From: Patescibacteria group bacterium
Lineage (GTDB): Bacteria; Patescibacteriota; Patescibacteriia; UBA9570
NCBI GenBank assembly: GCA_041665365.1
Contig: JBAYIY010000005.1
Location: 5,946-69,945 of the forward strand
Length of the DNA: 64,000 nt
Direction: 5' to 3'
The position numbers and the translations under genes were made by a program. The notes beneath the pieces were generated by a model that had not been told where the DNA came from, made no database searches, and saw only the letters and a program-made list of their open reading frames with translations. Positions 9,772 to 53,506 of this stretch are shown piece after piece (positions within the stretch are counted from its first letter, which is position 1; each line of letters starts with the position of its first letter).

Positions 9772-9800
9772 ACTTCGATAAACTCAGTATAAATAAACTC

Positions 9801-10580: not shown

Positions 10581-10690
10581 AGGTTATCATGTGCCGTAAC
10601 GTGGTCAAACGTGATTATATTTCTACCTGTGGAAAATGAATAAAATAGCTAGCCTTAGGTTAGCAGATTAACCAAACATGTCAAATCAAC

Positions 10691-12307: not shown

Positions 12308-12314
12308 AAGGTGA

Positions 12315-18781: not shown

Positions 18782-20823
18782 GATACTTTATTGGCTGGCG
18801 CATTGATTTGCGGTGGAGTGATTGGTTTTGGTTTAACCGGTTGTGGTTGTACAGGTTTATTTGGTTGCGGTGGTACCTGTTGGGGCAATTCACCACCTCT
18901 ATTTCGCCGTCGTCGGCGCCGTTTGCGTTTTTGTCCATCACCGGTTGGAGTTGGTTGAACATTCTGTGGTTTTGGTTGTTGAACCACGGGTTTTTCCAAA
19001 ACAACACGTGGAGCCGTACCATTTTTTAATGCCTGTAGGGGCAATTCATGAATTGCCCCTACAGGGTGAATTGGTTCAATCTCATCATCCGGCACATCTT
19101 CGAACTCATCATCATTATCTTCATCAACAACCAGATCAACTTTCTTACTCCCCTCTCCTGCAGAAGGAGAGGGGCTGGGGGCGAGGTCTCTCAATTGATG
19201 ATTAATAAAACTAATCCGTGGCCGAGTTGATGCATTATTATTTTCTACTTCATCTTCTTTAATAGCTTTTGCTAATTCGACTACTGCTGGTTTATTTGGT
19301 TTTGTTTGTTCAACTTGAATTGGCTTAGCTGGTACTTCACCGGGAATAAAATTACTGGTATCAACCTGCCCATTAGTTGCTTCGGCTTCATTGACGGTTA
19401 GCTGTACACCCTCTTTAGACATTTTAGCTGGTTTGTCATCGTCTGATAATTCAGGTTCAGCAGCGGTGATAATTTGATCCGGCCAATCCATCTCATCGTC
19501 TTTGGGTGAGGTTGTTGGAGCTATCTCGGGGTTAACATTGGGTCGATTAATTTGTACGCCACTCCAACGAATAATCCGATCTTCCACCACGGCTTGAGGG
19601 CGAGCATACCGTTCGCGTGAGACTTTAATCACTTTGTCTTTATTGTCGGTGGCACCGGTGGCTGGTGGTAAACCAATAGCTGAGAATGGTTCGGTGGCCA
19701 CACCATCAACCATTAAACGCATGCAAACAGTATATTTTTTCAGATTAACAATATCGGCTGGTAAAAACTGTGGCGCGAATTCTAACTCTAACTCGGCAGC
19801 ATCAGTTGCACCCACTCGAAACACAATCATTGTCCCGACGTTACCAAACACAGCGGCTTTTACCACATCACCTAATTGTTCAAAATACTGATGCGCCATG
19901 ATTAAACACAAGCGATATTTTCTGGCTTCAGATAAAATTCCAGCAAAACTATCGGTGGCGAAATTTTGAAACTCATCAACATATAAATAGAAATCTTTCC
20001 GCTCCTCTTCTGGAATATCTACCCGGCTCATGGCCGCAATTTGCAATTTTGTAATCATCATGGCTCCCAGCAAGGCCGAATTTTCTTCACCAATTCTGCC
20101 TTTAGCCAGATTCATAATTAAAATCTTCTGATTGTCCATCACATCACGCATCTCGATAGTGCTCTTCGATTGTCCGACAATGTTACGAATAATCGCTGAA
20201 GCTAAAAACTGACCGACTTTGTTTTGAATTGGCGCAATCGCTTCAGTTCTAAATTTTTCTGAATAATTGGCGTATTCATCGGCCCAAAAGGTTTTCACCA
20301 CTGGGTCGGTCACTTTATCAACCACTTTTTTACGATAGGCTTTATCGACCAACATGCGCATTAAACCCAACAACGTGCTGCCGGGATATTCTAATAACGC
20401 CAAAATGGTATTGGTCATAATGTACTCCATGCGTGGTCCCCAAGAATCAGCCCAGATTTTCTTGAACACACCCACTAAACCATAGGCCACTAGATGTTTA
20501 TAATCTTCGCCAATACTTTCTAAAATATTAAACGCAATCGGATATTTGGTATCAGACGGATTAAAGTAGATCACATCATTAACCCGATTAGTGGGAATGA
20601 ACTCTAAAATCTTTTCGGCTAAATCACCATGTGGGTCAACTACGGCTACGCCATGCCCAGCCCGAATATCACTAATAATCGCATTTTCCAACATGGTGGA
20701 TTTACCCATGCCGGTCTTACCCACTAAATACATATGCCGGCGCCGATCATCCCGTTTAATACCAAATTTACGCCGTTGGTTACGGAAGTTAGTTTCGGCA
20801 AAGACGGCAATTTCGCTGGACAT
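18760..20823 (-). CDS. P-loop ATPase, TraD/VirD4 (type IV coupling protein)/HerA-FtsK-like
   Basis: Walker A MYLVGKTGMGKST and Walker B FYLYVDEFQNF. T4CP-like motifs VVDPHGD and LIMAHQYFEQL. The ~200-aa C-terminal tail is disordered, Pro/Asp/Glu-rich, and ends in KRKRRRRRRNRGG plus a P/Q-rich repeat. Confidence 0.75.
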   Translation of the reverse strand: MSSEIAVFAETNFRNQRRKFGIKRDDRRRHMYLVGKTGMGKSTMLENAIISDIRAGHGVAVVDPHGDLAEKILEFIPTNRVNDVIYFNPSDTKYPIAFNILESIGEDYKHLVAYGLVGVFKKIWADSWGPRMEYIMTNTILALLEYPGSTLLGLMRMLVDKAYRKKVVDKVTDPVVKTFWADEYANYSEKFRTEAIAPIQNKVGQFLASAIIRNIVGQSKSTIEMRDVMDNQKILIMNLAKGRIGEENSALLGAMMITKLQIAAMSRVDIPEEERKDFYLYVDEFQNFATDSFAGILSEARKYRLCLIMAHQYFEQLGDVVKAAVFGNVGTMIVFRVGATDAAELELEFAPQFLPADIVNLKKYTVCMRLMVDGVATEPFSAIGLPPATGATDNKDKVIKVSRERYARPQAVVEDRIIRWSGVQINRPNVNPEIAPTTSPKDDEMDWPDQIITAAEPELSDDDKPAKMSKEGVQLTVNEAEATNGQVDTSNFIPGEVPAKPIQVEQTKPNKPAVVELAKAIKEDEVENNNASTRPRISFINHQLRDLAPSPSPSAGEGSKKVDLVVDEDNDDEFEDVPDDEIEPIHPVGAIHELPLQALKNGTAPRVVLEKPVVQQPKPQNVQPTPTGDGQKRKRRRRRRNRGGELPQQVPPQPNKPVQPQPVKPKPITPPQINAPANKVSWKDLLE

Positions 20824-20825
20824 AT

Positions 20826-22319
20826 TTATACAAATGGTAAATTAGATGGCGCTTCTGGTTCGACTTTAATTGCTGGAGTTGCGGGAGATGTTTGAGTTGT
20901 TGGTGTTTCCATGACGGGTTCAACCATGACGACAGGTTTAACAGTAACACCACCGCCTTTTTCTAACTGCACCGGAATGGCAGCACTAGCCTCAGCTTCA
21001 TCATAGCGCAATAACGTCGGCGGTTCCACACCACGCGATTGCGCCTTAGCCACATACGGCGCTCGCACATCAATTGACGGAAAGTGAAATAAAGCCGTAA
21101 TCTCTTCGGTTGATAAAATAAACCCTTCATGTTCACCTCGTTCCATGTCGCGTGACTTATATGCCCAATACATCCGGCGATAACGATTCAATACCCGATA
21201 CTTTGGAAATACAAACCGCCAAGATAAACAATTTTGATCAGTCCGCGTAATTTCACCCTCAGTAAAAGAATTAATATAACGATACAAACGCAAACCGCTT
21301 AACATACCACGACGAACTTTTTTGGAATCAACCATAGCCGGTGGAGCAAAATACATAAAGCGCACTTTTGAATGAAACGGCCAACGCGAGGCTTTTTTAT
21401 CAACTTCCTCAACAAATTCCTGTTCTGGTTTAGTCATACGCTGTCTTTCTTCTAAACGAGTATCATCGTGTGTTTCGGCCGCCGCTGATTCACCGCCAAA
21501 CAGAGCCTGATTAGTCATTTGCAGTGTTGATATGACAGTAGATTGAACGTGATCCATAATATCCGGGCCAGCATGGCCAGATTTGCCTGGCTCAACTAGA
21601 TTCATGATGGTTTCTTGTGCCCGGATTTTAAGTTTACCAAGATCGGCTGGTTGAATCATAATTTGATACCACAATTTTTCACCGGGTTGCAAGCGACTCA
21701 TAAATTCCAAAAGGTTGGCAAATGGATCAACCGCCTTCTGCGCTAAACTATGTTCAAACGCCGGATAAGGTTTAATCGGTAAAACATCGTCACCTTCCAA
21801 ACGCATCTCTGATCCCCATCCGGTCACTTTACGAGAATTAATCATTTCTAATGAGATATCTTTCGTATAATCTTCGACTTCAGACATGATGGCATCGGGG
21901 TAATGAGAATAAAATGCCGCCTGCACCATTTCTTTATAATATTTTGGAGCACGTACATAATAAGTAATATAGCCACCATCACTGACAATTTCGAAAGAGT
22001 ATTGCTCTTGTACAAAACCCAACCACCAAGTTTCGTACCAATCGGGTTGGTTATAAATACCATGCAGTTGTACAAAAATCTGTTCTACTGCCTTCATACT
22101 CTGCTCATTGTTCAGCGGCACTTCAATGCGATACATGACATGTTTGGTATGGTGTTTAAACTTTTCTTGAATCCAAAACAACCAACCGGTAAAGGCCATT
22201 TTTATCATGATCGGTATAAAAATCAATGCCCCACCATGACCAAGCAAAAACCATAACGCTTGAAACGGGTTATTGCCGTACTCTTTTAAAATATATTCAA
22301 GCAGCGGGGGCATACACAA
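20826..22319 (-). CDS. membrane-anchored hypothetical protein (497 aa)
   Basis: Two N-terminal TM helices (ALWFLLGHGGALIFIPIMI / FTGWLFWI), a large soluble domain and a low-complexity Pro/Thr-rich C-terminus. It ends 3 nt before the ATPase gene starts. Confidence 0.7.
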   Translation of the reverse strand: MCMPPLLEYILKEYGNNPFQALWFLLGHGGALIFIPIMIKMAFTGWLFWIQEKFKHHTKHVMYRIEVPLNNEQSMKAVEQIFVQLHGIYNQPDWYETWWLGFVQEQYSFEIVSDGGYITYYVRAPKYYKEMVQAAFYSHYPDAIMSEVEDYTKDISLEMINSRKVTGWGSEMRLEGDDVLPIKPYPAFEHSLAQKAVDPFANLLEFMSRLQPGEKLWYQIMIQPADLGKLKIRAQETIMNLVEPGKSGHAGPDIMDHVQSTVISTLQMTNQALFGGESAAAETHDDTRLEERQRMTKPEQEFVEEVDKKASRWPFHSKVRFMYFAPPAMVDSKKVRRGMLSGLRLYRYINSFTEGEITRTDQNCLSWRFVFPKYRVLNRYRRMYWAYKSRDMERGEHEGFILSTEEITALFHFPSIDVRAPYVAKAQSRGVEPPTLLRYDEAEASAAIPVQLEKGGGVTVKPVVMVEPVMETPTTQTSPATPAIKVEPEAPSNLPFV

Positions 22320-23391
22320 CAGTATAACGACCGTCTGGTAATTTACTAAATAATCGACGATTAGTGAGGGCTAAATGAATGGTATTTTTTTTCACAATCC
22401 GTTGTTCCAATACGGCTGTGACAAGTTGATCGCGTGTTAATGGACCACGCTCGGTTAAGATTTTTTTCACAATATCAGCTACGGCGCCTTTTTCGTAACC
22501 CCACTCCTTAAGAGCATAAATGCCACGACCCACTAACACATACTGGCTATTTAAAATTAATTCATTATGCACCGTGGGTGGATGGGCTTCTTTTTTAAAA
22601 ACTTCGGTAATTTGCTGAGCAATGTCGACAAAATGCATCGGTTTACTTACTTTTTTCAAAATTAAATAGATTTTATCATTCATGCGTTTTGGTACCACGC
22701 TCCCCCACGCCCGTAAACCGTATTCATCAAATGGATTATGATCGATCGCATCACTCACTTCCAATAAAGCGATAATAGTTTTTTCAGTTAATCTTGCATC
22801 AGGTGGAATTAGGTTCATAATACCAGCTACATTGAGAGGGATATTGGCCGTACCAATAGTGCGCACTAACAAATCGAGCGACTCGGTAATAAACTTGATG
22901 TCAGCGGTCTTAATGCGCCAACTTTTCATAAAAGTTTTGTCCGGACCGACTGACATTACCCGTGCACTGAGCAATTCAGTCAAAATAAACACTAAAGCCG
23001 CCTCCAGTTCGACCGTACTTTTTTCCAATAAAACCTCACTTAATAAATGGCTCTCTTGCATGATACCCCCGTGCTCTTCCAAGGTGGTTAGAATAACATG
23101 CTCAATCGGTTTTAAAACTACTTGTAAACTTGGATGTAATTTAATTTTACTCACAGCTAGGTTTTCGATCTGACGAATCCGTTCCCGAGTCACGGTATAT
23201 GATACTCCGATCGCTTCTAGGGTTTCTTTTGGTACACCATTTAATCCGTAACGCCGCTGTAACACATCAGCTTCTTTATCATTTAATTTGGCTAAAAGTA
23301 CACGAACAACATCACCAGGTTCAAACTCCTGTTTTTCTTGATCCTCTTTGCTCGCAATAATGCGATCAAGAATAGAAACTCCCATATCCAT
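22297..23391 (-). CDS. sigma-70 region 4 domain protein with a ~290-aa C-terminal extension (non-canonical sigma-like DNA-binding protein)
   Basis: Residues ~35-85 (DVLQRRYGLNGVPKETLEAIGVSYTVTRERIRQIENLAVSKIK) are a textbook sigma-70 region 4.2 HTH. No region 2 or 3 is recognisable. Overlaps the downstream gene by 23 nt. Confidence 0.75.
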   Translation of the reverse strand: MDMGVSILDRIIASKEDQEKQEFEPGDVVRVLLAKLNDKEADVLQRRYGLNGVPKETLEAIGVSYTVTRERIRQIENLAVSKIKLHPSLQVVLKPIEHVILTTLEEHGGIMQESHLLSEVLLEKSTVELEAALVFILTELLSARVMSVGPDKTFMKSWRIKTADIKFITESLDLLVRTIGTANIPLNVAGIMNLIPPDARLTEKTIIALLEVSDAIDHNPFDEYGLRAWGSVVPKRMNDKIYLILKKVSKPMHFVDIAQQITEVFKKEAHPPTVHNELILNSQYVLVGRGIYALKEWGYEKGAVADIVKKILTERGPLTRDQLVTAVLEQRIVKKNTIHLALTNRRLFSKLPDGRYTVVYAPAA

Positions 23392-23400
23392 AATAAGCGG

Positions 23401-23429
23401 AGTATATCACTTTCTTTACAATCTGTCAA
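23401..23429 (-). promoter_or_regulatory. near-consensus sigma-70 promoter, TTGACA-17 nt-TATACT, 9 nt upstream of the sigma-r4 gene ATG (leaderless or near-leaderless)
   Basis: On the minus strand: gatTTGACAgattgtaaagaaagtgaTATACTccgcttattATG. Confidence 0.45.
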
Positions 23430-23449
23430 ATCTATGGCCTGACCTGATA

Positions 23450-24334
23450 TTATTTTTTATTGAGTAATCTTTGCCAGATTAAAAGTGATGGGCTGGCGAT
23501 AAAGATTGAAGAATAGGTACCAACTCCAACACCAATTATTAAAGCTAAGATGAAATAGCGAATACTCTCTCCCCCGAAAAGTAACAAGACAGCCAATACA
23601 ATAATGACTGTCGTTGAGGTGTTTAATGACCGCATTAATGTCTGTTCAATACTATGTCCAATTATTTCAGCAAAAGTACTCCGAGCAGACCGATGTAAGT
23701 TTTCCCGAATTCTATCAAAGACTACAATGGTGTCATGAACGGAGAAACCCAAGATGGTCAATAAAGCCGTGATAAACATGACGTTTATTTCGACACCATA
23801 ATATTTACCTAACACCACAAACACACCCAGCGGGATCGTAATATCATGTAACAAAGCAATGACTGTAGATAAACCATACGCCCAAGATGGCACCGGACCG
23901 TTAGACACTGAGCGGAAAGCCCAGGCGATGTAGATAACAATGGCTACCACTACCAGGATAATAGCCGTAATGGCTTTTTGCCTTAATTCTTGGCCGATCG
24001 TTGGACCGATTGATTCAAAACTGTCTTCAACCGCCCCTGTGCCTAAAGCCGCCAACACGGCCACCCGCTGATCATCACTCATGAATTGAGTTTTTAAAAT
24101 ATAACTATCGTCATTAACCGGTTCCACTTGCACCTCACCCAAATTTAATGCGGCGACCTGACTTGAAACCGTTTCTGGACTAGGACGTTGTGTGGTGTAT
24201 TTAACTTGTAATAAAGTACCACCGGTGAAATCAATGCCCAAATTGAAGCCGAAGATAATAATTAAAACGATACTACCACCCACCATCAAACCAGAGATGG
24301 TATACCAGACTAAACGTAAGCGTAAAATACCCAT
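23450..24334 (-). CDS. secF: protein translocase subunit SecF
   Basis: 294 aa with six TM helices. Directly downstream of secD. Conserved SecF blocks (GIDFTGGT, ILGFSVHDTIVVFDRIREN). Confidence 0.85.
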   Translation of the reverse strand: MGILRLRLVWYTISGLMVGGSIVLIIIFGFNLGIDFTGGTLLQVKYTTQRPSPETVSSQVAALNLGEVQVEPVNDDSYILKTQFMSDDQRVAVLAALGTGAVEDSFESIGPTIGQELRQKAITAIILVVVAIVIYIAWAFRSVSNGPVPSWAYGLSTVIALLHDITIPLGVFVVLGKYYGVEINVMFITALLTILGFSVHDTIVVFDRIRENLHRSARSTFAEIIGHSIEQTLMRSLNTSTTVIIVLAVLLLFGGESIRYFILALIIGVGVGTYSSIFIASPSLLIWQRLLNKK

Positions 24335-24335
24335 A

Positions 24336-25976
24336 TTATTTTTTAGAAGATAACACTTTTAATAATGTCCGCGTCACCGTGATAGCGGTAAACATACTCA
24401 AAACAATACCAATGGCTAAGGTGACAGCAAAACCTTTAATCACTGAGGTACCAAACCAAATTAGAATCACACAAGTAATTAATGATGAGACATTAGAATC
24501 GCGAATTGATAACCAAGCCCGTTTAAAACCATCGTCAATGGCACTTTGTTTATCTTTACCGCGTTTTAATTCTTCTTTCATTCTTTCAAAGATTAAAATA
24601 TTGGCATCAACCGCCATACCTAATGACAAAATAAACCCGGCAATACCTGAAAGCGTTAAAGTAATCGGCCAAAGTTTAAATATGGCTAAGAGCACTAAAC
24701 CATACACCGTCAAAGCACAGATTGCCAGTATACCTGGATACCGGTAATAACCAACCATAAATACTGCCAAACAGATCATAGCTAATAGGCCAGCTAAAAC
24801 ACTACGCTCTAAGGCCTCTATACCCAAACTAGGGCCAATGTTGCGCTGATTAACTAATGTAATTGGTACTGGTAGAGCCCCTTCATTTAAACGGCGGGCT
24901 AAGGTTTTAGCTTCATCTAATGTGAAATTTCCTTCAATGGTAGCTTGACCACCACTAATCGCTTCGTTCACCACTGGCGTACTGATAGCGCTACCATCTA
25001 AATAAATCGCAATCGTTTTACCAACATTATCTCCGGTAATTTTTTCAAATAATTTTGAACCTTCATCGTTAAACTGCAAAGCTACCAGTGGCACTGATGT
25101 GGTTTGGTCAAATTGGACTGACGCTTTTTTTAATTGTTTACCGGTTAATTCAGTATCATCATACTGTGGACCAAACACACTAATATCTAAGGGATACTTT
25201 TTATATTCAATAGTACTTATTTTCACAGCTTCGATGGTGGCGGCACCTTCCGGAGCTGTTGTACTGATACCATTTAAAACATCTAGCACACCGGTTTGTT
25301 TATCTTCCACTTTTAATATTACATAGGCATCACTTTTATCGATCAAATTCGGTATCACAGCCCCACTGTTTGCTGAAAACGCAGTATCGGCTAAGGCTGG
25401 ATCAATTTGCACACGAGAGACATAACCTAAAGCCGTATAATTATCAGGCGCTAACGTAGCAAAATCTTCCCCCGCTTTGGCTTTATCCAATGTGCCTTGC
25501 GCTTGGGTTTGTGTTTGGACATTAAGGCCATCTAAGAAATTTTTTTGATCAGCGCTGAGCGTTTGATCAGTGGACTCAGTTTTAAATTGTAACGATGGCG
25601 TTTCACCAATTTGTTTTATGGCGGCATTGATGTCGGTGATACCGGGTAATTCCACCAACACCCGCCAGTGTTCGCCCGACCGGCTACTTTGTACCACTGG
25701 CTCAGATACACCAAAAGCATTAACGCGCCGTTCAATCACATCACGTAAACCAGCTAAAGCATCGGCTTCTTCACCGGCTGCGACGCGAGACAAATCGGCT
25801 TCATATACTAAAGCCGTACCACCTTGTAAATCAAGACCTAACTGCACTTTTAATTCACGCACCATTTTGCCTTGCCAGGTGATATCCGGACCATTCGGGT
25901 AATCCACTACCGCGGCCACCACCGCCAAAGCCATAATACCACCAAACAAGCACCAAAGTTTCCGACGCACTGTCAT
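24336..25976 (-). CDS. secD: protein translocase subunit SecD
   Basis: 546 aa with an N-terminal TM helix, a large periplasmic domain and C-terminal TM helices (LGLDLQGGT, GPSLG, SMFTAITVTRTL). Confidence 0.85.
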   Translation of the reverse strand: MTVRRKLWCLFGGIMALAVVAAVVDYPNGPDITWQGKMVRELKVQLGLDLQGGTALVYEADLSRVAAGEEADALAGLRDVIERRVNAFGVSEPVVQSSRSGEHWRVLVELPGITDINAAIKQIGETPSLQFKTESTDQTLSADQKNFLDGLNVQTQTQAQGTLDKAKAGEDFATLAPDNYTALGYVSRVQIDPALADTAFSANSGAVIPNLIDKSDAYVILKVEDKQTGVLDVLNGISTTAPEGAATIEAVKISTIEYKKYPLDISVFGPQYDDTELTGKQLKKASVQFDQTTSVPLVALQFNDEGSKLFEKITGDNVGKTIAIYLDGSAISTPVVNEAISGGQATIEGNFTLDEAKTLARRLNEGALPVPITLVNQRNIGPSLGIEALERSVLAGLLAMICLAVFMVGYYRYPGILAICALTVYGLVLLAIFKLWPITLTLSGIAGFILSLGMAVDANILIFERMKEELKRGKDKQSAIDDGFKRAWLSIRDSNVSSLITCVILIWFGTSVIKGFAVTLAIGIVLSMFTAITVTRTLLKVLSSKK

Positions 25977-26521
25977 AAGCGTTTACGATAGATATAATAA
26001 CCGGCTGATAAAATAAGTAGCACACCAATCACTCCTCCTACCACCCACGGCCAGTATTTTACGGCATTAGTGTCATCCAGTACAATCGGTTTATTCCGTT
26101 CTTGCGTAACAGCATCACTAGTATAACTCCCATCAGCTTTAATATTGATAGTATGATAACTGCGATTTTTATCACCCGCTTCCAGCGCTGTGGCTAAACC
26201 TGTCACTGAATATTGAGCGACGGCAGCTTGTTGATAACTTTGTAGGATAGTTTGATCGGTCAGATTAGCCACCCGCGGATAACCTTCCGGCAATTGATAA
26301 AATGTGGCATCAACTGAGGCTTGCTCACGAAATGGCGTTAAACTACACCGATTACCCTGACAAGTGTAAATCGTAGCATCATTGGCTAAAGTAAAAACAT
26401 AATTATATCGCGTTTGTTGTTCATCGGATTGGCCATCATGCAACAATACCACATCTGATGGCTGCGGTAGAGACACAGCTTGAGCCATTAGTGGAAATAA
26501 TAAAGTTAAAAACCAAATCAT
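25973..26521 (-). CDS. hypothetical exported protein with C-terminal membrane anchor
   Basis: 182 aa with a signal peptide (MIWFLTLLFPLMAQA) and a C-terminal TM helix followed by KRL. Confidence 0.55.
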   Translation of the reverse strand: MIWFLTLLFPLMAQAVSLPQPSDVVLLHDGQSDEQQTRYNYVFTLANDATIYTCQGNRCSLTPFREQASVDATFYQLPEGYPRVANLTDQTILQSYQQAAVAQYSVTGLATALEAGDKNRSYHTINIKADGSYTSDAVTQERNKPIVLDDTNAVKYWPWVVGGVIGVLLILSAGYYIYRKRL

Positions 26522-26524
26522 AAC

Positions 26525-27916
26525 TTATGGAACATTTATTACAACATCGCCCACTTGACCCCAATTATACAACCATTCGGCATTGGTCGCATCAATGTTA
26601 ATACAACCATGACTCATTTTGTGACCAAAGTTGTGATGCCAGTAGGCATAGTGTAGGTGAAATGGTCCAGAAAAACGTAGGTTCCATTTGACGTTCTTTA
26701 AATCATAGTTATCAGGATTGTTTGTACCATAATTCCAGGTATAATCTTTCATGAATATTTTTTCTTGCACAGCAAATTGACCAAGCGGTGTGGGATATTT
26801 ATCAATCCCGGTGGAAACATAAAACTCTCGGACTAATTCACCATATTCGTAGACGCGCGTTTTTTGTTCGGATATATCAGTTTCAATATAGCGAATTAAA
26901 TCCGCTCGGCCTTGGGCGCGATTCTTGCCCGGGACGGTTACGACGTCAATCTTACCATCGCCAGTCACATCACCCAGTGCCAGGTTTAAGCCACCGCGAA
27001 AATCTGCTGGGTAAGCAAAAAAACTTTTACTGGTGTTCGCTCCATACCCTTCAAAAAAAATAACTTGTGGGCCACCACTTTGCCGAGGCGTAACCGCTAC
27101 TTCAGCCATACCATCATGATCAATGTCACCCGCGGCTACATTAGTACCACTATATAATCCGGAAAAAGCTTTCCAGTTCCCTAATATGTCACCGTTATTT
27201 TTATAAACTTTCACCCAATCTTCACCGGCTGAATAAATTGACATGACCAGTTCATCATCTTTACCACCATCCACATTGGCGGTTGTTATAGCGACACCAC
27301 CAACATTGTCACTGGCAAAAGGATGAAACTCAGTCCCCAAAAAACGACCTTTACGCGAAAACACGCGCACATCCGCAGCACCCCCTGGGCCGGCCGCGAC
27401 CGCTATTTCAGAAATGCCATCGCCGTTATAATCACCCACGGTAACATCACAGCCACCGCGAAAATTAGAAGCAAACGCAAAAAAACCTGGGCCAAATACA
27501 CTTTTGCCCGCAGCATCAAACACCCGCACCTGTGGCCCACCGCCAGCACCAACTCCGGTGATAATCTCCGCTTTACCATCGTGGTTCAAATCACCGGTGG
27601 CAACTTTTACACCAGTGCGTAAAGACTGATCGTAAGCAAACCACTGTGATACTAACGTACCGTCACCTTCAAACACTTGCACCATTGGGCCACCGTCCCG
27701 GCCGGCTCCAACCACAATTTCATCAACTCCATCGCCATCCACATCACCCACTGCTACATCAAGACCACCATCAAAACTACCATTGAGGGCGTTAAAACTA
27801 GTAGTTTGATTAAAAGATTTATCAAATACTCGTACCTCGGGTGCCATACTATCGTAGGCCAAGGTCAGCACTGGAAAACACAAACTAAGTGTTATTACTA
27901 GACCATATTTATGCAT
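26525..27916 (-). CDS. FG-GAP repeat protein fused to a C-terminal L,D-transpeptidase (YkuD) domain
   Basis: Signal peptide, then repeated GDVDGDGVDEIVVGAG..GGP.V.VF units (FG-GAP/VCBS). C-terminal YkuD catalytic motif YWHHNFGHKMSHGCINIDATNAEWLYNW. Confidence 0.8.
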   Translation of the reverse strand: MHKYGLVITLSLCFPVLTLAYDSMAPEVRVFDKSFNQTTSFNALNGSFDGGLDVAVGDVDGDGVDEIVVGAGRDGGPMVQVFEGDGTLVSQWFAYDQSLRTGVKVATGDLNHDGKAEIITGVGAGGGPQVRVFDAAGKSVFGPGFFAFASNFRGGCDVTVGDYNGDGISEIAVAAGPGGAADVRVFSRKGRFLGTEFHPFASDNVGGVAITTANVDGGKDDELVMSIYSAGEDWVKVYKNNGDILGNWKAFSGLYSGTNVAAGDIDHDGMAEVAVTPRQSGGPQVIFFEGYGANTSKSFFAYPADFRGGLNLALGDVTGDGKIDVVTVPGKNRAQGRADLIRYIETDISEQKTRVYEYGELVREFYVSTGIDKYPTPLGQFAVQEKIFMKDYTWNYGTNNPDNYDLKNVKWNLRFSGPFHLHYAYWHHNFGHKMSHGCINIDATNAEWLYNWGQVGDVVINVP

Positions 27917-27940
27917 GGCGCTAGTGTAGCAGGTTCAGTC

Positions 27941-29335
27941 TTATTGTTCAATAACCGCAAGGTCGCCCACATTCATCCAACCATAGAGCCACTCGGCATT
28001 GGTATAAGAAATGTTCACACAACCATGGCTCATAGGATGACCAAAATTATTATGCCAGTAGGCACCGTGTAAATAATAATGAGGTCTAAACTCAAGATTA
28101 TATAAGGTATTTGGTAGATAAAAACCAGGACCAGAATATAACTTACTATAGATTTTTCTTAGAATATGATACTCCCCTGGCGGTGTGCCCATACCCGGGA
28201 CACCGGACGAGATTAAAAAACTATTCACCAAATAACCCTGTTCGTATGCATACATTCTTTGTTCACTTAAATCTACGCGCACATATTTAGCCACATCAGT
28301 GCGACCATCTGGTTTTAGTTTACCAGGCAAGGTGACGATGCGATCTTGGTAGACTGCTATATTCACGCCACTGTGAAAATCTTCTTCATAGGCAAAGAAA
28401 CCAGGATTGATATCTTTACCATTGGCCTCATACATTTTTACTTGTGGACCGCCCTTACCATGTACACCTACCACTATTTCAACTTTACCATCATTATCAA
28501 TGTCACTGGCCGCGACATTCACGCCACCTCTAAACCCTTCACCGAAAACTTTAAATTCGTTAACGATAGTTTGTTGGGCATCGTAGTTATAAATTTTAAC
28601 CCAAGCATCGCCATCTTGTTGAATAGTAGTGATCACTTCGGCGGCTGGATCGTTATCGACATTACCAACAGCGACACTGACACCACCCTGGTTGTCATTG
28701 GCAAACGGATGAAACTCATATGTTTTTTGTTTACCGGTCGCTGAGAAAACACGCACGGTTGGTGCCATTTTTTCTCCACTGCCCACTACGATGTCAGCTT
28801 TACCGTCGGCATCAACATCTCCCACGGCGACATTGACTCCGCCATTGTAAGATTGATCGAAGGCGAAGAAGCCTACTGTTTGATCCACCCGACCACTGCC
28901 ATCGAACACGCGAATATGTGGACCACCACCAACTTTTGGCCCAGTGATAATTTCGGTTCGACCATCTCCATCCACATCACCAGCGGCTACATTCACCCCT
29001 GCTAGCATGTTGGTATCGTACGCGTAGAACTGATTAATAAATGAACCATCTAATCGAAAGGTTCTAACTTGCGGCCCGCCTCCTAAACCGGCCGCCGTAA
29101 TTATTTCTGGTATGCCATCTGTTCCTAGATCAGCGATCGCTATTGTACCGCCGCCCGTAAAGGCTTGATCGTAAGCAAAAAAATGAGTAGTTTGGTTGTA
29201 CTGTCCATTACTATTCGAAAACACCCGTACTTCCGGTGCTCGCAAATATGTGGCCGCCTGAACATTGGTGGCGACAGTTGTTCCAATCAGAAGGCAAAAT
29301 AAACTCACTATTATGTAGTGTGTCTTCATAATCAA
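27941..29335 (-). CDS. FG-GAP repeat protein fused to a C-terminal L,D-transpeptidase domain (tandem paralog)
   Basis: Signal peptide, FG-GAP units (GDVDGDGRTEIITG..GGPHIRVFDG) and C-terminal YWHNNFGHPMSHGCVNISYTNAEWLYGW. Confidence 0.8.
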   Translation of the reverse strand: MIMKTHYIIVSLFCLLIGTTVATNVQAATYLRAPEVRVFSNSNGQYNQTTHFFAYDQAFTGGGTIAIADLGTDGIPEIITAAGLGGGPQVRTFRLDGSFINQFYAYDTNMLAGVNVAAGDVDGDGRTEIITGPKVGGGPHIRVFDGSGRVDQTVGFFAFDQSYNGGVNVAVGDVDADGKADIVVGSGEKMAPTVRVFSATGKQKTYEFHPFANDNQGGVSVAVGNVDNDPAAEVITTIQQDGDAWVKIYNYDAQQTIVNEFKVFGEGFRGGVNVAASDIDNDGKVEIVVGVHGKGGPQVKMYEANGKDINPGFFAYEEDFHSGVNIAVYQDRIVTLPGKLKPDGRTDVAKYVRVDLSEQRMYAYEQGYLVNSFLISSGVPGMGTPPGEYHILRKIYSKLYSGPGFYLPNTLYNLEFRPHYYLHGAYWHNNFGHPMSHGCVNISYTNAEWLYGWMNVGDLAVIEQ

Positions 29336-29652
29336 TTCATATTTAAACTACCCTCAACCACTGTGTATTGAGACTTAGTTAATTCAGCTATAACTTCTGC
29401 TAGTGAAGAACCACTAAATTTCAGATCTTTAAAACCTTGCAAAGCCTCATTTTCGACAACTGCTCCGTATGTAGGTGTAATATCGACAGACATCGAACCG
29501 GTACCGACATCTTTTGTCATTACCACGGCAAACTTGACCGGTTGATCGCTCCCTGGAATATTCACATCTATCGTACCACTACGAGTTTGTTCAGGAATAG
29601 AACCGCGTTCATTATTACGGTGCCTCCAAAAATCAGGCTTTAATTCTGTCAT
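29332..29652 (-). CDS. hypothetical protein (106 aa)
   Basis: ORF with a 4-nt overlap onto the downstream LDT-fusion gene. No recognisable motif. Confidence 0.45.
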   Translation of the reverse strand: MTELKPDFWRHRNNERGSIPEQTRSGTIDVNIPGSDQPVKFAVVMTKDVGTGSMSVDITPTYGAVVENEALQGFKDLKFSGSSLAEVIAELTKSQYTVVEGSLNMN

Positions 29653-29892
29653 ATTTTGCTTGTGTTTTAACTACCGTTTTTTATTTTTGAACTAACTCAA
29701 AATCACTATAAACAAAGTATAGCAAAAAAAATGACCTTCGTCAACTAGCTGACAAAATAGACGATCACTCCAACCAAGAAAACCAACGCCACAGCTCCGC
29801 CAAAACCTAAGACGATCATCATGGTGGTACTTAGACCAGACCGATTATTGCGCAAATATTTACTCATACATTTTTGTTTAGTGACTGCTTAA

Positions 29893-31263
29893 TTATTGAT
29901 TAGTTGATAACTTTAACCGACTTTGAATCACAATCACCATTAAGGCCACTACTCCGACTAAGGCTAACAAAATTGAGTATTCCGGAATGGTAACCACTAA
30001 GGGGAAGAAACCCATGAACAATACCAACATGGGCAAGAGGAATTTTATGGAGAATTTACCACCAGCCACGCGCCCAACTAAATACAACATGAGTGCACTT
30101 ATTAATACCCACGCACTGACAAAGGCGCCATACAGTGGCATCGAAAAATATGGGACATTTGTAATGTTGGCAAACACTTCAATGGTTGGATCAATCGTAA
30201 AGCTCGATAAATAATGGAATAGTGGGAAAAATAAAGTATATAGAATTGATAGTAAAAACAAATCGATTAACGATAATGGTTTGCTACCAAACTGATAAAC
30301 TAAAAATAATAAGATGATAATAAAGACTACAAAGATCGGCGCCATCACCACATAAACGCGCGATACTTGCAGTGATGGGTTAACCTTATCCCCGATCGCT
30401 ATAGAAATAGTTGGTTTGGAATAAAGGTCAGGCTTATCCCAAGTGAGTTGCACATAGTTCGCACCAAACTCTCTCTGATCAACCGATAAACCTTTGGCGA
30501 CATCGTAAGACCGAATACCGTTGATGCGTCCGATAAAATGAAAATCCTGCGACCCTTTGGGATTATCAATCCCTTCATAAGTAAACACGGCTAAACCAAC
30601 TGTGTTATAGGTCACATGAACTGTCACATTACCATTAGCCGGAATCTCACCATTCCATTCTAAACCAAGATTTTCCGTGACGCTGGGATAATAATAGTCG
30701 TACGTGTCGGTATTATTTTCCAGTTTAATAGTAGTCTTGGCATTTGAGACTGGTTTACCATCAACCGATAAGGTGGCATTACTAATTTCATTATCACTCG
30801 CTTCGCTGGGGAAAGGAAATCTAAACGACACGGCCGCCGTTTCAGCTAAGGTATTACTTAATACATAATCAGCACTAAATTTTGTGCGGTAAGTGGGTTG
30901 GTAGGTTAAACCTTTTTTCACATAATCCGCGGTGATATCTACTTGACCGGAAGTACTAGTGAGAGAAGTATTCTCAACAAAGCGTTTCACTTTTTCGGCA
31001 TTAAGTTGCTCCTTGTCATACAAAGGTTCAGCCGAATCAACCCCTGCTAAACTAGGCGAAGTTTGTGTGAGTGATCCATTATAAACCGCACTGACAGCGT
31101 CATAATTACTGGCGGTAATATCTTCTCGGGTACTAACCACGGCCATCATAATTAAACTAAATACTCCAATCGACATGGCCAGAATAATCACCGCCGTAAA
31201 ATACTGGATTAATAAATAATTGTTTTTGGCAAGTAGTGAGACTGGTTTTGTTGGTTGATCCAT
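29893..31263 (-). CDS. hypothetical membrane protein (456 aa)
   Basis: N-terminal TM helix, a ~270-aa extracytoplasmic domain and C-terminal multi-TM helices. Confidence 0.6.
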   Translation of the reverse strand: MDQPTKPVSLLAKNNYLLIQYFTAVIILAMSIGVFSLIMMAVVSTREDITASNYDAVSAVYNGSLTQTSPSLAGVDSAEPLYDKEQLNAEKVKRFVENTSLTSTSGQVDITADYVKKGLTYQPTYRTKFSADYVLSNTLAETAAVSFRFPFPSEASDNEISNATLSVDGKPVSNAKTTIKLENNTDTYDYYYPSVTENLGLEWNGEIPANGNVTVHVTYNTVGLAVFTYEGIDNPKGSQDFHFIGRINGIRSYDVAKGLSVDQREFGANYVQLTWDKPDLYSKPTISIAIGDKVNPSLQVSRVYVVMAPIFVVFIIILLFLVYQFGSKPLSLIDLFLLSILYTLFFPLFHYLSSFTIDPTIEVFANITNVPYFSMPLYGAFVSAWVLISALMLYLVGRVAGGKFSIKFLLPMLVLFMGFFPLVVTIPEYSILLALVGVVALMVIVIQSRLKLSTNQ

Positions 31264-31315
31264 AGGGGTTAGTAAATAGTAATAGGTTGTATTGTAATCG
31301 AAAAAAGGGGAAAGA

Positions 31316-31993
31316 TCAACTTAGTTGTGTGAACATGGTTTGCAGTTGAGCTTTGGTTAATTGCCCGGGGGCGGATTGCTCGGCTTTAGTTAACGGGGCA
31401 AATATCATCTCATTGCCCCACAGTGATCCATAGATTCTGGTCACTGTCCCCCATTCGCCCATACCGAGAACAATAACCGGAAACTTTTTAGCTTTTAGTT
31501 CCAGTAATAATTGCAGTAAGGTCAGGGCATTTTTTTTATGTAAACACAGGGTTGAGATTTTATAAATCTTGGGTGCATACCGGTGCATGACATCAATTAT
31601 TTCCCATAATTTTTCCAGATGCGGTGTATTGTGATAATTATGATAAGACACAATTTGTTGAACAGACCAATGGTGGTTTTTGATAAGCTCTAACTCGTCA
31701 GTTTGATCGGAAATATCTAAATCCAACCAAGCCGGTGTGTTACGCACTTGTTGGATAATTCTTAAATGTTGATCGGCATCCAAACGTACTCGAGCGAGCT
31801 TTTGTCTGCGCAACACCAGAATAAGTTTTTTACCCAATTGTTTAATCAGTTGTGGAACAAATGAATCATCCAAATCAGTGATGTAATCCAACCACACTTC
31901 GAAGTAGGTATAGTCAGACAGATTAGCCTGAATAGTTGCTAACACTTCTGCTTGAGTGCTCTTAATTATGGGTAGACAGTATTTTATAGTCAT
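31316..31993 (-). CDS. aroD: 3-dehydroquinate dehydratase, type I
   Basis: 225 aa. C-terminal APGQLTKAQL resembles the AroD SAPGQISVNDL block, and PKIYKIST resembles the catalytic-Lys block PKIALMP. The N-terminal IKYCLPII resembles KICVPI. Confidence 0.5.
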   Translation of the reverse strand: MTIKYCLPIIKSTQAEVLATIQANLSDYTYFEVWLDYITDLDDSFVPQLIKQLGKKLILVLRRQKLARVRLDADQHLRIIQQVRNTPAWLDLDISDQTDELELIKNHHWSVQQIVSYHNYHNTPHLEKLWEIIDVMHRYAPKIYKISTLCLHKKNALTLLQLLLELKAKKFPVIVLGMGEWGTVTRIYGSLWGNEMIFAPLTKAEQSAPGQLTKAQLQTMFTQLS

Positions 31994-32005
31994 AGCATTA
32001 AATTA

Positions 32006-33034
32006 TCAGTTCTGTTTTAATTTGTAATACGTTGCCTTGCCTTTACCGTGTGCTGTAATCATTTTTTGATCAACGAGATAACGCAAATCGGCGGCGCGAG
32101 TTGATTTGGCGCGTTTTACCAATGTGGCATAAAACGCATCATTGATCGAGCCATGGGCTCGAATATAGTTCATGATAATATGGTGATACTCTTTTAAACC
32201 TGAAGCGGGGGCTTGGCTGGTGTTATCTAGCTCAGTCTTCACTCGTATTAGTTCATCAATGATTCCGTCCGTAAAATATTCTAGCCACACCGTAAAATCA
32301 ACTTTCAAATCATAATAACTACCTCTCTCTCCCACCAGAGAAAAATACTTTGTCACATTATTATTATAATAACGCTCAAAACTAAATAATTGAAAAGTAT
32401 TTAAACCTAATCCAGCTAACAATACTTTGGTAGCCAAACGCACGGTTCGACCATTGCCATCAATAAACGGATGAATTAAAACAAATTGTTTGTGAAAAAT
32501 TCCGGATAAGATTAAAGCATCAATCGTGCCTTGTTGAGTAGCAATAAACTCTATTAAATCTCCGAGTAAATTTGGCACATCCTGCTGATCTGGTGGCCAA
32601 TAAACTGTTTGACCAATGCTTGGATCACGTACAAACACTGGCGCAGTTCTTATCACTCCTGAGGATGATTCCAACATGACTCCTGTTGTTACTTGACGAT
32701 GAATTTTTAATATTAAAGATTCATCAAGTATATGTCTGCCAGTTTTTAGTTGATCATTTAACATCATTAAAGCCTGATTATAATTCAACACTTCTCGTTG
32801 GGTATCACGAATATGCGCCGGAGCTTGTTTGAGAAGTTGTTTCACATCTGTTAATGGTAAGGGATTCCCCTCGATACTAGTTGAAGCATGAGCTGACACT
32901 TCACGTGCAATTCGTTCCAGTTCAAATAAAACTACTTGCGGAAAACGCCGGTTATTCAAAATTTCCACTATCTGGCTAATTTTCTTAATATTAGCCAGTA
33001 ATTGATTGGTAATAGTGTACTTGGGTTCAAACAT
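32006..33034 (-). CDS. Fic/DOC family protein
   Basis: Fic motif HPFIDGNGRTVRL and a C-terminal winged-helix tail (AHGKGKATYYKLK). Confidence 0.85.
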   Translation of the reverse strand: MFEPKYTITNQLLANIKKISQIVEILNNRRFPQVVLFELERIAREVSAHASTSIEGNPLPLTDVKQLLKQAPAHIRDTQREVLNYNQALMMLNDQLKTGRHILDESLILKIHRQVTTGVMLESSSGVIRTAPVFVRDPSIGQTVYWPPDQQDVPNLLGDLIEFIATQQGTIDALILSGIFHKQFVLIHPFIDGNGRTVRLATKVLLAGLGLNTFQLFSFERYYNNNVTKYFSLVGERGSYYDLKVDFTVWLEYFTDGIIDELIRVKTELDNTSQAPASGLKEYHHIIMNYIRAHGSINDAFYATLVKRAKSTRAADLRYLVDQKMITAHGKGKATYYKLKQN

Positions 33035-34711: not shown

Positions 34712-35770
34712 TTATTTCTTCAAACGATAATACGTCGCTTTGCCTTTGCCGTGCGCTGCAATCATTTTAATTTTCTTCAACTTTTGTAGATGTAATTGAG
34801 CGGTTCGTTTTGGACAATGTAAAATATCCACCACATCACTGATGGTCAGTCTACCAAGCGAACCAAGAAAATCTAAAATAGTAACTTGATCTTTATCCAA
34901 AAATATTTGCGTGTCGATATTTAAATCCTTCAGCTTGACTGGCAAACTGAATATTTTACGTCTCACCAGATCGATTTCTTCTTTAAAGCCATTTATAAAA
35001 TATTCCAACCAAGGGGTAAAATCTTGGCGACGAGTATCATAATCCTTGCCAATATTAATGGCGGCATAATAAGCTGGCCGATCATTGTTATAATAATCTT
35101 CCAACGCAAATAAGTGACGGAAATCATAACCACGCTGATAGAGCACTAAAGTGGCTAGGGCGCGAGCCGTTCGACCATTGCCATCGGCAAAAGGATGAAT
35201 CGCAGCAATTTCTTGATGGACAATGCCTGCTACGATAACCGGATTAATTTGCTCTTTGATACTATACTGCATCCATTCGATTAAATTATCCATTAACTTT
35301 GGTACAGCATTTACCGCGGCAGCTGTGTACATGATCTCCTGTCTACCGTCAGCATATCTACGTACAACATACACCATGTGTTTTCTATATTTACCAGATG
35401 ATCCAACTGGCAATGTATTGGTTGTCACTAAACGATGAATCTTTAAAATAACCTGTTTAGTTATGACCTTTTTTTCTTTAACAACTTGGTCAATATATTT
35501 GAGTGCTTTGAGATAATTTTCTACTTCATAAATATCTCGCACCGGGGCAGTAATCTTTTGTTTGTTCGCCAATGCTTCAACTTCTCGAACATTTAAAATG
35601 TTGCCCTCTATAGCCGTTGAACTATGAGTCATTCTAATTAAAGCTTGCCGACGGAGCTTTAGTTCTTGTTGCGGCAAAATTCGCGCACGTTCAATTACTG
35701 CTTTACCTTCGGAAATAGCAGTTAACAGGTGAACAATTTTATCAGTCAATTGATATTTTGGATGAAACAT
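34712..35770 (-). CDS. Fic/DOC family protein (paralog)
   Basis: Fic motif HPFADGNGRTARAL and tail AAHGKGKATYYRLKK. I place the start at Met30 (MFHPKYQLT, aligning with MFEPKYTIT of the other Fic) rather than the track's 35857. Confidence 0.8.
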   Translation of the reverse strand: MFHPKYQLTDKIVHLLTAISEGKAVIERARILPQQELKLRRQALIRMTHSSTAIEGNILNVREVEALANKQKITAPVRDIYEVENYLKALKYIDQVVKEKKVITKQVILKIHRLVTTNTLPVGSSGKYRKHMVYVVRRYADGRQEIMYTAAAVNAVPKLMDNLIEWMQYSIKEQINPVIVAGIVHQEIAAIHPFADGNGRTARALATLVLYQRGYDFRHLFALEDYYNNDRPAYYAAINIGKDYDTRRQDFTPWLEYFINGFKEEIDLVRRKIFSLPVKLKDLNIDTQIFLDKDQVTILDFLGSLGRLTISDVVDILHCPKRTAQLHLQKLKKIKMIAAHGKGKATYYRLKK

Positions 35771-35803
35771 ACGGCATTGTAATAATACTACAAAAAATCT
35801 AAT

Positions 35804-35831
35804 CGCGCAAGATCCGCGCATAAATCGCGCA
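35804..35831. promoter_or_regulatory. triple 11-nt-periodic direct repeat CGCGCA upstream of the second Fic gene (candidate operator)
   Basis: CGCGCA at 35804-35809, 35815-35820 and 35826-35831, lying 34-61 nt upstream of the proposed start at 35770. Confidence 0.35.
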
Positions 35832-35853
35832 AGCCTGATTAACATTTTACTGC

Positions 35854-35885
35854 CCATGACACTTCTTGAAGTGTTATCTTAATGG
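35854..35885 (-). promoter_or_regulatory. conserved ~32-nt upstream element, copy 1 (CCATTAAGATARCACTTCAA-N7-CATGG on the minus strand)
   Basis: The 20-mer TTGAAGTGYTATCTTAATGG at 35866-35885 recurs at 37188-37207 with one mismatch. Each copy starts exactly 96 nt upstream of a minus-strand start codon (35770 and 37092). Confidence 0.4.
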
Positions 35886-35940: not shown

Positions 35941-37092
35941 TTATTGATCGGTTTTAAAACTAACCGAATCTGACCAAGGTGTTAAGACGCCGCCAATTTT
36001 CGCACGCACCCTGACTTGGTAATGATGATTGGATAGTAGTTCAGACAAGGTATGCTTAGCAGCAGTCGTTTTGATCGTATCGAGCACTTTTCCAGAAGTT
36101 GACCGAAGTTGTATCGTGTATTTCTGCACATCGGTAAGTGTATCCCAAGTAACCCGCGCACTACTGTCTGTACGATTAGCTTTCGGTACAGCCACATTTT
36201 GTACACCAACCTTTTTGATTTTATAACTCAACTGGTCAGTTGAATCTTGAGCAGCATCGGCCGCCATTAATGCACTAGTAGTAAAATCACCTCCAGCATA
36301 GGTTTGCACAGCAAAATTCAGCATATCACCATAATCAATATTTTTCAGATTCAATAATCCAGTACCATCGGCATTGGTTAAATTCAAATCCGTTTCAAAA
36401 CCACCAGCGCTATCCACGTTTTTGCCCGACTCCCCACCCTTAGAGGTGTCACCGATTTCTGGATCAATGACAACTAACAAACTATCTTCATCTGGATTAA
36501 ATGCGGCTGTAGCAAAATCTTCAGTTGTGGATTCTTCATAAATAGCCGTGACCTCAGGACCATTTTCCATGCCGATACTATCACGCAAGGCGTGGAGGTA
36601 AACCGCATAGTACAGAATGGAACCAGAATCACCTTTCTGCATCTTAAACACTAACCACATATCCAGGTCAGCGGGTAAACCAACATTGTCACCTGGGCCA
36701 TCTTGGTCACCGAATTCATAGTATTTTTCTTCCACTAGATCATATACCGATAATAAGGGGTGGAAAGAGTCAATATAGAGTTGCAATTGTGTGGCCGTAT
36801 TACAGACTTTTATATTTTCTAAATCACTCATCAGGTCGATGTTGGTAGTATAACGATCTCCACTAGATTCCGTAGTAGACCAACCAGTGTCACTATAATA
36901 GTAACTAATTCCAGTGAGATCTGATCCATCGGTAGTCAGTGACTCAACATCTGCCCAGTCGCCCGTATTATTATCAATGACTACGCCACTGCAGGCGTTA
37001 CCATCGGCTGAGACAACATTGGGCAATAAGGTACTGCCAATGACCAAACTGGTAGAGATGATGCTGATAATAAACACTTTCAATGGAACCAT
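35941..37092 (-). CDS. secreted protein with C-terminal fibronectin type III domain
   Basis: Signal peptide and an Asp/Gly/Thr-rich central region. C-terminal ~90 aa are FN3-like (VTWDTLTDVQKYTIQLRSTSG...YQVRVRAKIGGVLTPWSDSVSF). Confidence 0.6.
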   Translation of the reverse strand: MVPLKVFIISIISTSLVIGSTLLPNVVSADGNACSGVVIDNNTGDWADVESLTTDGSDLTGISYYYSDTGWSTTESSGDRYTTNIDLMSDLENIKVCNTATQLQLYIDSFHPLLSVYDLVEEKYYEFGDQDGPGDNVGLPADLDMWLVFKMQKGDSGSILYYAVYLHALRDSIGMENGPEVTAIYEESTTEDFATAAFNPDEDSLLVVIDPEIGDTSKGGESGKNVDSAGGFETDLNLTNADGTGLLNLKNIDYGDMLNFAVQTYAGGDFTTSALMAADAAQDSTDQLSYKIKKVGVQNVAVPKANRTDSSARVTWDTLTDVQKYTIQLRSTSGKVLDTIKTTAAKHTLSELLSNHHYQVRVRAKIGGVLTPWSDSVSFKTDQ

Positions 37093-53504: not shown

Positions 53505-53506
53505 GG

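Follow-up and report, generated by a model that had tools for sequence, protein, structure and literature searches.

How a wall-modifying enzyme might be held at its site of action is the question raised by two neighbouring genes, here called LDT-A and LDT-B, in a 64,000-nucleotide stretch of DNA from a Patescibacteria group bacterium (assembly GCA_041665365.1, contig JBAYIY010000005.1, positions 5,946 to 69,945 of the forward strand; hereafter the window). L,D-transpeptidases (LDTs) matter as beta-lactam-insensitive cross-linkers of the cell wall, and their accessory domains decide where they act and on what target. The envelope biology of the Patescibacteria, few of which have been cultivated, is almost unexplored. 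A sequence-only reading of the window had described two secreted tandem paralogs of 463 and 464 aa, each joining about six FG-GAP units to a C-terminal YkuD domain, and had proposed that the fusion confers a different targeting mode. The two open reading frames (ORFs) lie exactly where that reading had placed them, on the minus strand and separated by 24 bp, and their products are indeed paralogs, with 43% identity from end to end (E 3e-127). The domain identities of both proteins are essentially certain. Together they define a genuine and clearly delimited variant of a known enzyme family, not remarked on before, which lies in the accessory domain: the catalytic domain of an LDT is joined to a six-bladed FG-GAP propeller.

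The catalytic domain was identified by the Pfam YkuD profile (PF03734), which matches LDT-A with 77.9 bits (E 1.6e-21, residues 342-460) and LDT-B with 72.1 bits (E 9.8e-20, residues 350-462) at a curated gathering cut-off of 23.4 bits. The domain has the YkuD/ErfK fold, and the motifs that had been noticed by eye, SHGCINI in LDT-A (435-441) and SHGCVNIS in LDT-B (436-443), are present; in both paralogs the Cys lies in the pattern [S/T]-x-G-C-h-[N/R] with the catalytic His about 16 residues upstream. Alignment of 62 family members revealed invariant H422, W426, H427, G431, S435, G437, C438 and N440, with H436 invariant or nearly so. The catalytic-motif columns of LDT-B are likewise invariant in 56 sequences, and SHGC[VIT]N is kept in all but two of about 169 full-length members retrieved. 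Profile matches in the PDB are bona fide cross-linking LDTs, and their counterparts in Ldtfm and Ldt2 line up with the catalytic His and with the SHGC-x-N motif. A long hairpin (strands 385-394 and 404-416) aligns, with small gaps only, with the lid region of Ldtfm and of Mycobacterium abscessus Ldt2. The donor and acceptor paths of LdtMt2 and Ldtfm are kept apart by a lid made of an extended loop II; in the carboxypeptidase Csd6 this loop is much shorter, the lid is absent and there is one route of access only (PMC4599014). Judged by loop II, the long hairpin makes the domain of LDT-A and LDT-B look like the two-substrate, cross-linking type.

The pair shares with LdtMt2 and Ldtfm the fold, the His...Ser-His-Gly-Cys-x-Asn signature, a Trp four residues past the catalytic His, probably the lid over the cleft, to judge by its extended hairpin, and a predicted secreted location, but differs in the accessory part, where LdtMt2 has Ig-like domains, Ldtfm an N-terminal domain and the pair a propeller, with neither LysM nor PG_binding. 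The identity between the catalytic domains is only about 20-28%, and the activity of the pair is predicted from sequence. NCBIfam offered no specific family match for either protein.

The propeller was recognised by two Pfam models, FG-GAP (PF01839; E 3.8e-20 for LDT-A and 6.7e-14 for LDT-B) and FG-GAP_3, the former VCBS model (PF13517; E 7.4e-19 and 2.8e-14, respectively). The estimate of about six units turned out to be exact: there are six of 50-54 aa, with a period of about 52 aa and the pattern F.GG..VA.GD.DGDG..EI..G.G.GGP.V.VF...G.....F.AY; those of LDT-A begin at residues 47, 98, 151, 203, 253 and 305. The periodicity is clear and is not that of Gly/Asp low complexity. Neither of the failings that the sequence-only reading had envisaged, a C-terminal domain without a match to YkuD profiles or an FG-GAP call without propeller periodicity, was found. 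The sixth unit stops after two strands, and an N-terminal stretch (PEVRVF...F.A) matches the two missing strands in sequence; residues 22-46 of LDT-A are the two closing strands of blade 6, and their equivalents in LDT-B are strands 35-53. AlphaFold2 models were built on family alignments for both paralogs, and in both of them DSSP assigns six blades of four strands each, with the N-terminal strands completing blade 6. As modelled, the propeller is velcro-closed and six-bladed.

This blade number sets the domain apart from the integrin-alpha-type propeller, which has seven blades where both models have six. In a structure comparison whose matches include Brat, phytase, the PknD sensor domain, Kelch and YWTD, the seven-bladed integrin alpha chains scored lower and fitted poorly. 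The repeats are nevertheless homologous to the blades of integrin alpha-V (E 2e-10 by profile, 2.7e-5 by single sequence), and we therefore regard the domain as an FG-GAP propeller of non-canonical blade number. Like the propellers of integrin alpha chains and of bacterial FG-GAP (VCBS) proteins, it carries the Ca2+-loop consensus in most blades: the full [DN]x[DNST]x[DN]Gxx[DE] occurs in five of the six LDT-A blades and in three LDT-B blades. Counted over the 62 members, blades 1 to 6 keep it in 42, 51, 41, 0, 54 and 34 sequences, respectively. Those blades that have this integrin-type consensus may bind Ca2+. Blade 4 stands out, because both the Ca2+ loop and the GGP motif are missing from it in 62 of 62 members, and it has instead a motif of its own (P199, N214-V-D-G-G, E222 and W233-V-K-V-Y) whose conservation exceeds that of the canonical loops. 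It could be a docking surface for the YkuD domain or a ligand site.

The two domains are connected by a short linker, conserved both in length and in sequence (P329...G336...Y343, "GR.D..KYIEVDLSEQ"). The propeller makes up about two thirds of the chain and could not by itself account for a predicted template modelling score (pTM) of 0.87, so that the two domains would be fixed relative to each other; in the models, the relative placement of propeller and YkuD domain appears confidently predicted. Following standard propeller topology, the chain would leave the propeller after strand B of blade 6, on the 'top' side that binds ligands and faces away from the Ca2+ loops. The two domains together are not covered by any solved structure; in a Foldseek search, query-normalised TM-scores reach 0.26 at best.

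Both proteins had also been described as secreted, and the hydrophobic, signal-like segments at their N-termini agree with this. Such a stretch is found in 60 of the 62 family members, a lipobox-like motif in only one of them and in neither LDT-A nor LDT-B, and there is no further transmembrane (TM) segment beyond the N-terminal one. The two proteins are thus likely to be secreted, soluble and non-lipidated, as far as their sequences tell. Pfam detected no LysM, PG_binding or other classical wall-binding domain in either of them.

The fusion might have been taken for a peculiarity of the window, but it belongs to a large, length-conserved family that is common in Patescibacteria and already carries automatic annotation. 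A word-indexed search returned 1,625 matches, of which the best 120 are nearly all 450-500 aa long with the same FG-GAP and YkuD composition in Pfam, and an exhaustive phmmer scan of 1.84 billion cluster representatives gave 3,444 matches at E <= 1e-30. Among the best 150 of these 3,444 representatives (clustered at 50% identity), 58 are full-length, with about 450-490 aa, and a profile built from the most divergent members retrieved more members of the same length and architecture. A scan of genome contigs with a single protein as query yielded two close loci, and the exact sequence of LDT-A is present in a public assembly record. All members that carry an organism name are Patescibacteria, namely Candidatus Kerfeldbacteria, Nomurabacteria and Uhrbacteria, which are placed in the Parcubacteria group of NCBI, and "Patescibacteria group bacterium". 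Judged by these named members, the family appears, as far as could be seen, restricted to Patescibacteria. One syntenic contig (CAYLOJ010000005.1, locus L002) is titled 'uncultured Gammaproteobacteria bacterium'; because of the synteny and of 67-78% identity to the window in LDT-A, LDT-B, SecD and a 456-aa membrane protein, it probably is a taxonomically mislabelled metagenome-assembled genome. The existing labels are "L,D-transpeptidase family protein" at NCBI and "lipoprotein-anchoring transpeptidase ErfK/SrfK" at JGI, the latter being the generic name of COG1376 and not evidence of function. In the literature, we found no paper on a fusion of an FG-GAP or other propeller to a YkuD or L,D-transpeptidase domain and none on LDTs of Patescibacteria or Parcubacteria. 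The family would add a new accessory class to the LDTs, a six-bladed FG-GAP propeller with Ca2+-loop motifs.

The tandem pair is an old duplication that has been maintained, and not a recent local event. Two related loci (L001 and L002) carry both genes, which pair with those of the window as orthologs: LDT-A is 63% and 75% identical to its counterparts in L001 and L002, respectively, and LDT-B 58% and 67%, while A and B are 43-45% identical to each other across these loci. A rough neighbour-joining tree of 169 members does not place the A clade (24 sequences) next to the B clade (10) as its sister; the two meet only at an ancestor from which 98 of the 169 leaves descend. It is from this topology, together with the ortholog pairing, that the age of the duplication is deduced. 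More distant genomes (L003 and L005) have a single copy. Both paralogs retain all catalytic residues, and LDT-B has lost the Ca2+ loop of blade 6.

What the two enzymes do we infer from this architecture, and the inference covers the reaction, its place and the part of the propeller. With slightly better than even confidence, we propose that LDT-A and LDT-B work as L,D-transpeptidases on the peptidoglycan of the cell itself, with the propeller as a module for retention on the wall or its glycan. The proteins would be exported by the Sec pathway in a soluble, Ca2+-stabilised form. Cys438 would attack the carbonyl at the L-centre of residue 3 of a tetrapeptide stem with release of the terminal D-Ala, and the acyl-enzyme would then be resolved either by the side-chain amine of a neighbouring stem, yielding a 3-3 cross-link, or by a free amine, yielding exchange. 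The propeller would replace the LysM, PG_binding or Ig-like accessory module of other LDTs and would keep the soluble enzyme on the wall, probably through Ca2+-dependent binding to glycan of the wall or to some other polymer at the surface. There is precedent for a propeller that binds sugar in the GlcNAc-binding, integrin-like lectin PVL, and the rhamnogalacturonan lyases YesW and YesX have Ca2+-containing propellers of the FG-GAP type; YesW and YesX appear among the Foldseek matches. If the propeller indeed binds wall or glycan, it would be a new cell-wall-targeting domain reused by several secreted enzymes.

Such reuse is suggested by the proteins other than LDTs that match the propeller. 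These are larger secreted proteins, the enzyme fusions among them being 580-760 aa long, in which the same repeat type (GGPxVxVF...FFAY...GGVxVAxGDxxGDG) is joined to S8 subtilases, GH18, GH64 and GH85 glycoside hydrolases, phosphodiester glycosidase, cyclophilin, dockerin, DUF11 and PKD/Ig domains. They resemble the LDT fusions in the repeat and in being secreted, differ from them in catalytic domain and length, and are likewise uncharacterised. At least some of the propeller-enzyme fusions lie on Patescibacteria-type contigs. One phosphodiester-glycosidase fusion occurs together with an LDT member on the same 1.1-Mb Kerfeldbacteria contig, and one S8 fusion adjoins genes for DUF4012, MreB and GT4 proteins. 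This distribution suggests, and fits with, a shared and reusable extracellular module for targeting or retention.

A second link between FG-GAP propellers and the wall is provided by a 614-aa protein encoded elsewhere in the window, which the sequence-only reading had listed as a third FG-GAP protein within a mur/fts operon and which is real, as is the FN3 protein (35941-37092) that it had added as a fourth. The 614-aa protein is 100% identical to WCV88_03205; its N-terminus is signal-like, its C-terminal region is basic, and it contains seven repeats of the integrin style. The stop of its gene overlaps the start of ftsW (45567-46730), and the two are translationally coupled in this lineage; the order lepA, FG-GAP gene, ftsW, murG is conserved in relatives (L011, 5001-6896; L012, 5001-6788), where the protein is 42% and 53% identical. 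In the canonical division and cell wall (dcw) cluster, the slot held here by the FG-GAP gene is occupied by murD. The possibility that the 614-aa protein is a paralog of the LDT propeller was rejected, since its seven units are of a different, integrin-like subtype (GD.NGDGYDD...GAP...VYIVYG). The earlier suggestion that cell-surface repeat proteins are expanded in this region is weakened by the same difference and by the conserved position of the gene upstream of ftsW. The LDT fusion and this separate, ftsW-coupled gene are two independent ways in which propellers of the FG-GAP class are tied to wall-building genes. The location of the LDT genes among housekeeping genes for export and wall synthesis, with a second FG-GAP gene coupled to ftsW, is in line with action on the cell's own wall.

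Several points weigh against this proposal. The literature yielded no paper with biochemistry or genetics on any family member, and the 64-kb window encodes no penicillin-binding protein. Intact Cys and His also occur in the YkuD domains of L,D-carboxypeptidases, endopeptidases and protein-anchoring enzymes, and sequence alone cannot separate these activities. No ligand of the propeller was identified. The different targeting mode suggested at the outset is a reasonable idea with support in part: the lack of a classical wall-binding domain, the occurrence of the propeller on other secreted enzymes and the conserved Ca2+ loops fit it as indirect evidence. The adjacency of the LDT genes to secDF was rejected as functional evidence. 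It is found in L001, L002, L003 (a complete Nomurabacteria genome) and L005/6, but is lost in the divergent loci L007-L009 and hence reflects only the gene order of the lineage.

Among the other explanations, covalent anchoring survives best, although we consider it unlikely. Here, the YkuD domain would attach a surface protein (S-layer, pilus or other envelope protein) to peptidoglycan and the propeller would select the substrate, by analogy with Escherichia coli LdtA-C (ErfK/YbiS/YcfS), which attach Braun's lipoprotein. The label given at JGI points this way, generic as it is, and two anciently diverged paralogs could serve two substrates. A small type I membrane protein of 182 aa, which adjoins LDT-A in close relatives, might be seen as such a substrate or partner. 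It has no Pfam or NCBIfam match, no conserved motif before its C-terminal TM segment and no obvious sorting motif. Its counterparts in L002 and L001 are 57% and 32% identical, respectively, the 208-aa gene at the same position in L005 is probably unrelated (16% identity), and L003 has none. With its conservation limited to close relatives and no conserved motif, the 182-aa protein was set aside, and no candidate substrate has been identified. E. coli LdtA-C share the YkuD catalytic domain with the pair but differ in their accessory domains and have Arg after Cys-x where LDT-A and LDT-B have Asn, as do LdtMt2 and Ldtfm. The catalytic domain is closest to the cross-linking LDTs of Gram-positive bacteria and mycobacteria. 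Patescibacteria are thought to lack an outer membrane, and monoderm bacteria normally anchor proteins by sortases.

Hydrolysis appears rather improbable. In this reading the YkuD domain would be an L,D-carboxypeptidase or endopeptidase, used for trimming tetrapeptides or cutting existing links, like Csd6, DpaA/LdtF or ElsL, and two sources describe carboxypeptidase or hydrolase chemistry in YkuD folds with intact Cys and His (PMC4599014; PMC10653827). LDT-B even matches the ElsL model (NF040925), but only with 15.7 bits at a cut-off of 270, far too few for that family. The extended hairpin, aligned with the lid region of Ldtfm and Ldt2 where Csd6 is lidless, speaks against the carboxypeptidase type as well, and the best matches in sequence and fold are all cross-linking LDTs.

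It is also conceivable, yet very doubtful in our view, that the enzymes are directed at a host. Patescibacteria are often episymbionts, and their propeller-LDTs could attach to the surface of a host cell and, at the site of contact, remodel its peptidoglycan or poison it. The proteins seem to be soluble and secreted and have no membrane anchor, the propeller could be an adhesin-like module, and the family appears confined to this lineage. Precedents are the L,D-transpeptidases with which Bdellovibrio reinforces the wall of its prey (PMC7511926) and effectors with an LDT fold (PMC9638812). The Tlde1 effectors of the type VI secretion system would be analogues. However, the genes stand in a conserved housekeeping order (secA, mur, secDF) and not in variable or secretion-system islands, the family is conserved in length and sequence, unlike the usually diversifying proteins of host interaction, and no immunity-like partner is conserved across the loci compared. 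In its most far-reaching form, which we regard as a long shot, the propeller-LDTs would be Patescibacteria-specific interaction factors that dock onto a glycan or surface protein of the host wall, with the LDT domain cross-linking host peptidoglycan at the episymbiotic contact; in a milder version, FG-GAP propellers would quite generally serve to organise or retain the wall-synthesis machinery of this lineage, with the LDT fusion and the ftsW-coupled gene standing in for classical peptidoglycan-binding domains. Action on a host wall, if true, would offer a molecular handle on episymbiosis in the candidate phyla radiation.

An artefact, be it an FG-GAP call due to Gly/Asp low complexity or a YkuD domain that is a degenerate pseudo-enzyme, has next to no chance, as it is refuted by the Pfam scores, the strict repeat register of about 52 aa, the confident 24-strand propeller models, the profile homology to integrin alpha-V blades, the structure matches and the invariant catalytic residues. 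As it stands, the assignment of LDT-A and LDT-B as propeller-bearing members of the L,D-transpeptidase family is a solid and testable refinement of annotation, and not a surprise. The features on which it is built are compiled in the table, with model confidence as predicted local distance difference test (pLDDT).

Table. Positions of the LDT genes, their domains and associated genes within the window
Feature	Position	Strand	Basis
LDT-A gene, 463 aa	26525..27916	minus	ORF; Pfam; AlphaFold2 (pLDDT 93.8, pTM 0.87)
LDT-A signal-peptide-like N-terminus, residues 1-21, end ...TLA-Y	27854..27916	minus	sequence; low-pLDDT helix 5-12
LDT-A six-bladed FG-GAP propeller, residues 22-335	26912..27853	minus	repeat units; AlphaFold2 model
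LDT-A blade-4 motif region, residues 199-238	~27203-27322	minus	62-member alignment
LDT-A YkuD domain, residues 342-463, including lid-like hairpin 385-416	26528..26893	minus	
LDT-A catalytic motif S435-H-G-C438-I-N440	26597..26614	minus	translation; catalytic His422 at 26651-26653
LDT-B gene, 464 aa (462 aa if start is ATG at 29329)	27941..29335	minus	ORF; Pfam YkuD and FG-GAP; AlphaFold2 (pLDDT 94.2, pTM 0.87)
LDT-B signal-peptide-like N-terminus, residues 1-27, end ...VQA	29255..29335	minus	hydrophobic helix 5-20, low pLDDT
LDT-B six-bladed FG-GAP propeller, residues 28-343, blade 6 without Ca2+ loop	28307..29254	minus	repeat register; DSSP, 6 x 4 strands
LDT-B YkuD domain, residues 350-464	27944..28288	minus	Pfam PF03734, E 9.8e-20; translation
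LDT-B catalytic motif S436-H-G-C439-V-N441	28013..28030	minus	translation; catalytic His423 at 28067-28069
182-aa type I membrane protein (signal peptide and C-terminal TM) between LDT-A and secD	25973..26521	minus	ORF
secD	24336-25976	minus	Pfam; overlaps 182-aa gene by 4 bp
secF	23450-24334	minus	Pfam
614-aa FG-GAP protein	46730-48574	minus	seven FG-GAP stretches, 173 bits

Around the pair, the genes follow each other in the order 106-aa ORF, LDT-B, LDT-A, 182-aa protein, secD, secF, a sigma-70 region 4 protein, a 497-aa protein and a TrwB-like ATPase. The proposed start of LDT-B is a TTG that overlaps the stop of the 106-aa ORF upstream, with an alternative ATG two codons downstream. Throughout this order, gaps are minimal or the genes overlap, and this tight spacing suggests co-transcription; a scan of positions 23000-32200 for promoters and terminators gave counts at chance level. 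Within its periplasmic region, SecD contains a peptidyl-prolyl isomerase (rotamase) insert of the PpiC type (Rotamase_2, E 8e-6, residues 156-228), which is also recorded in L003 and L005 (PF00639/PF13616) and looks like a translocon-chaperone fusion typical of the lineage. The block that follows secF (18760-23391, minus) encodes the sigma-70 region 4 protein, a protein of about 470-500 aa (DUF8128 in relatives) and the TrwB/VirD4-like coupling ATPase, and its order is shared with Nomurabacteria (L003) and another Patescibacteria genome (L005). Within 9 kb of the LDT pair there are two genes with a Fic/DOC domain (32006-33034 and 34712-35857, both minus), and in L001 a Fic gene (5054-6085) lies just upstream of the LDT pair of that locus.

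Between murG and murC, a Mur ligase of 378 aa (43438-44574, minus), possibly MurD, matches only the middle and C-terminal domains in Pfam, and its counterpart in L011 has 424 aa and an additional FOL3_C match. A glycan-assembly cluster (50350-60862, minus) adjoins the wall-synthesis genes and comprises a TMEM260-like putative O-mannosyltransferase, MurJ, a 702-aa DUF4012 protein, three GT4 glycosyltransferases and a Bac_transf initiating sugar transferase; its product may be a wall-associated polymer and, as such, a candidate ligand of the propellers. The window also encodes a bacterial class A RNase P RNA (60880-61230, minus, 204.8 bits), and an ORF on the opposite strand (60916-61485) is probably spurious because it overlaps this RNA. 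Four tandem paralogs of 529-561 aa (6458-13904, minus) each have an N-terminal treble-clef zinc finger (zf_Tbcl) and no other recognisable domain.

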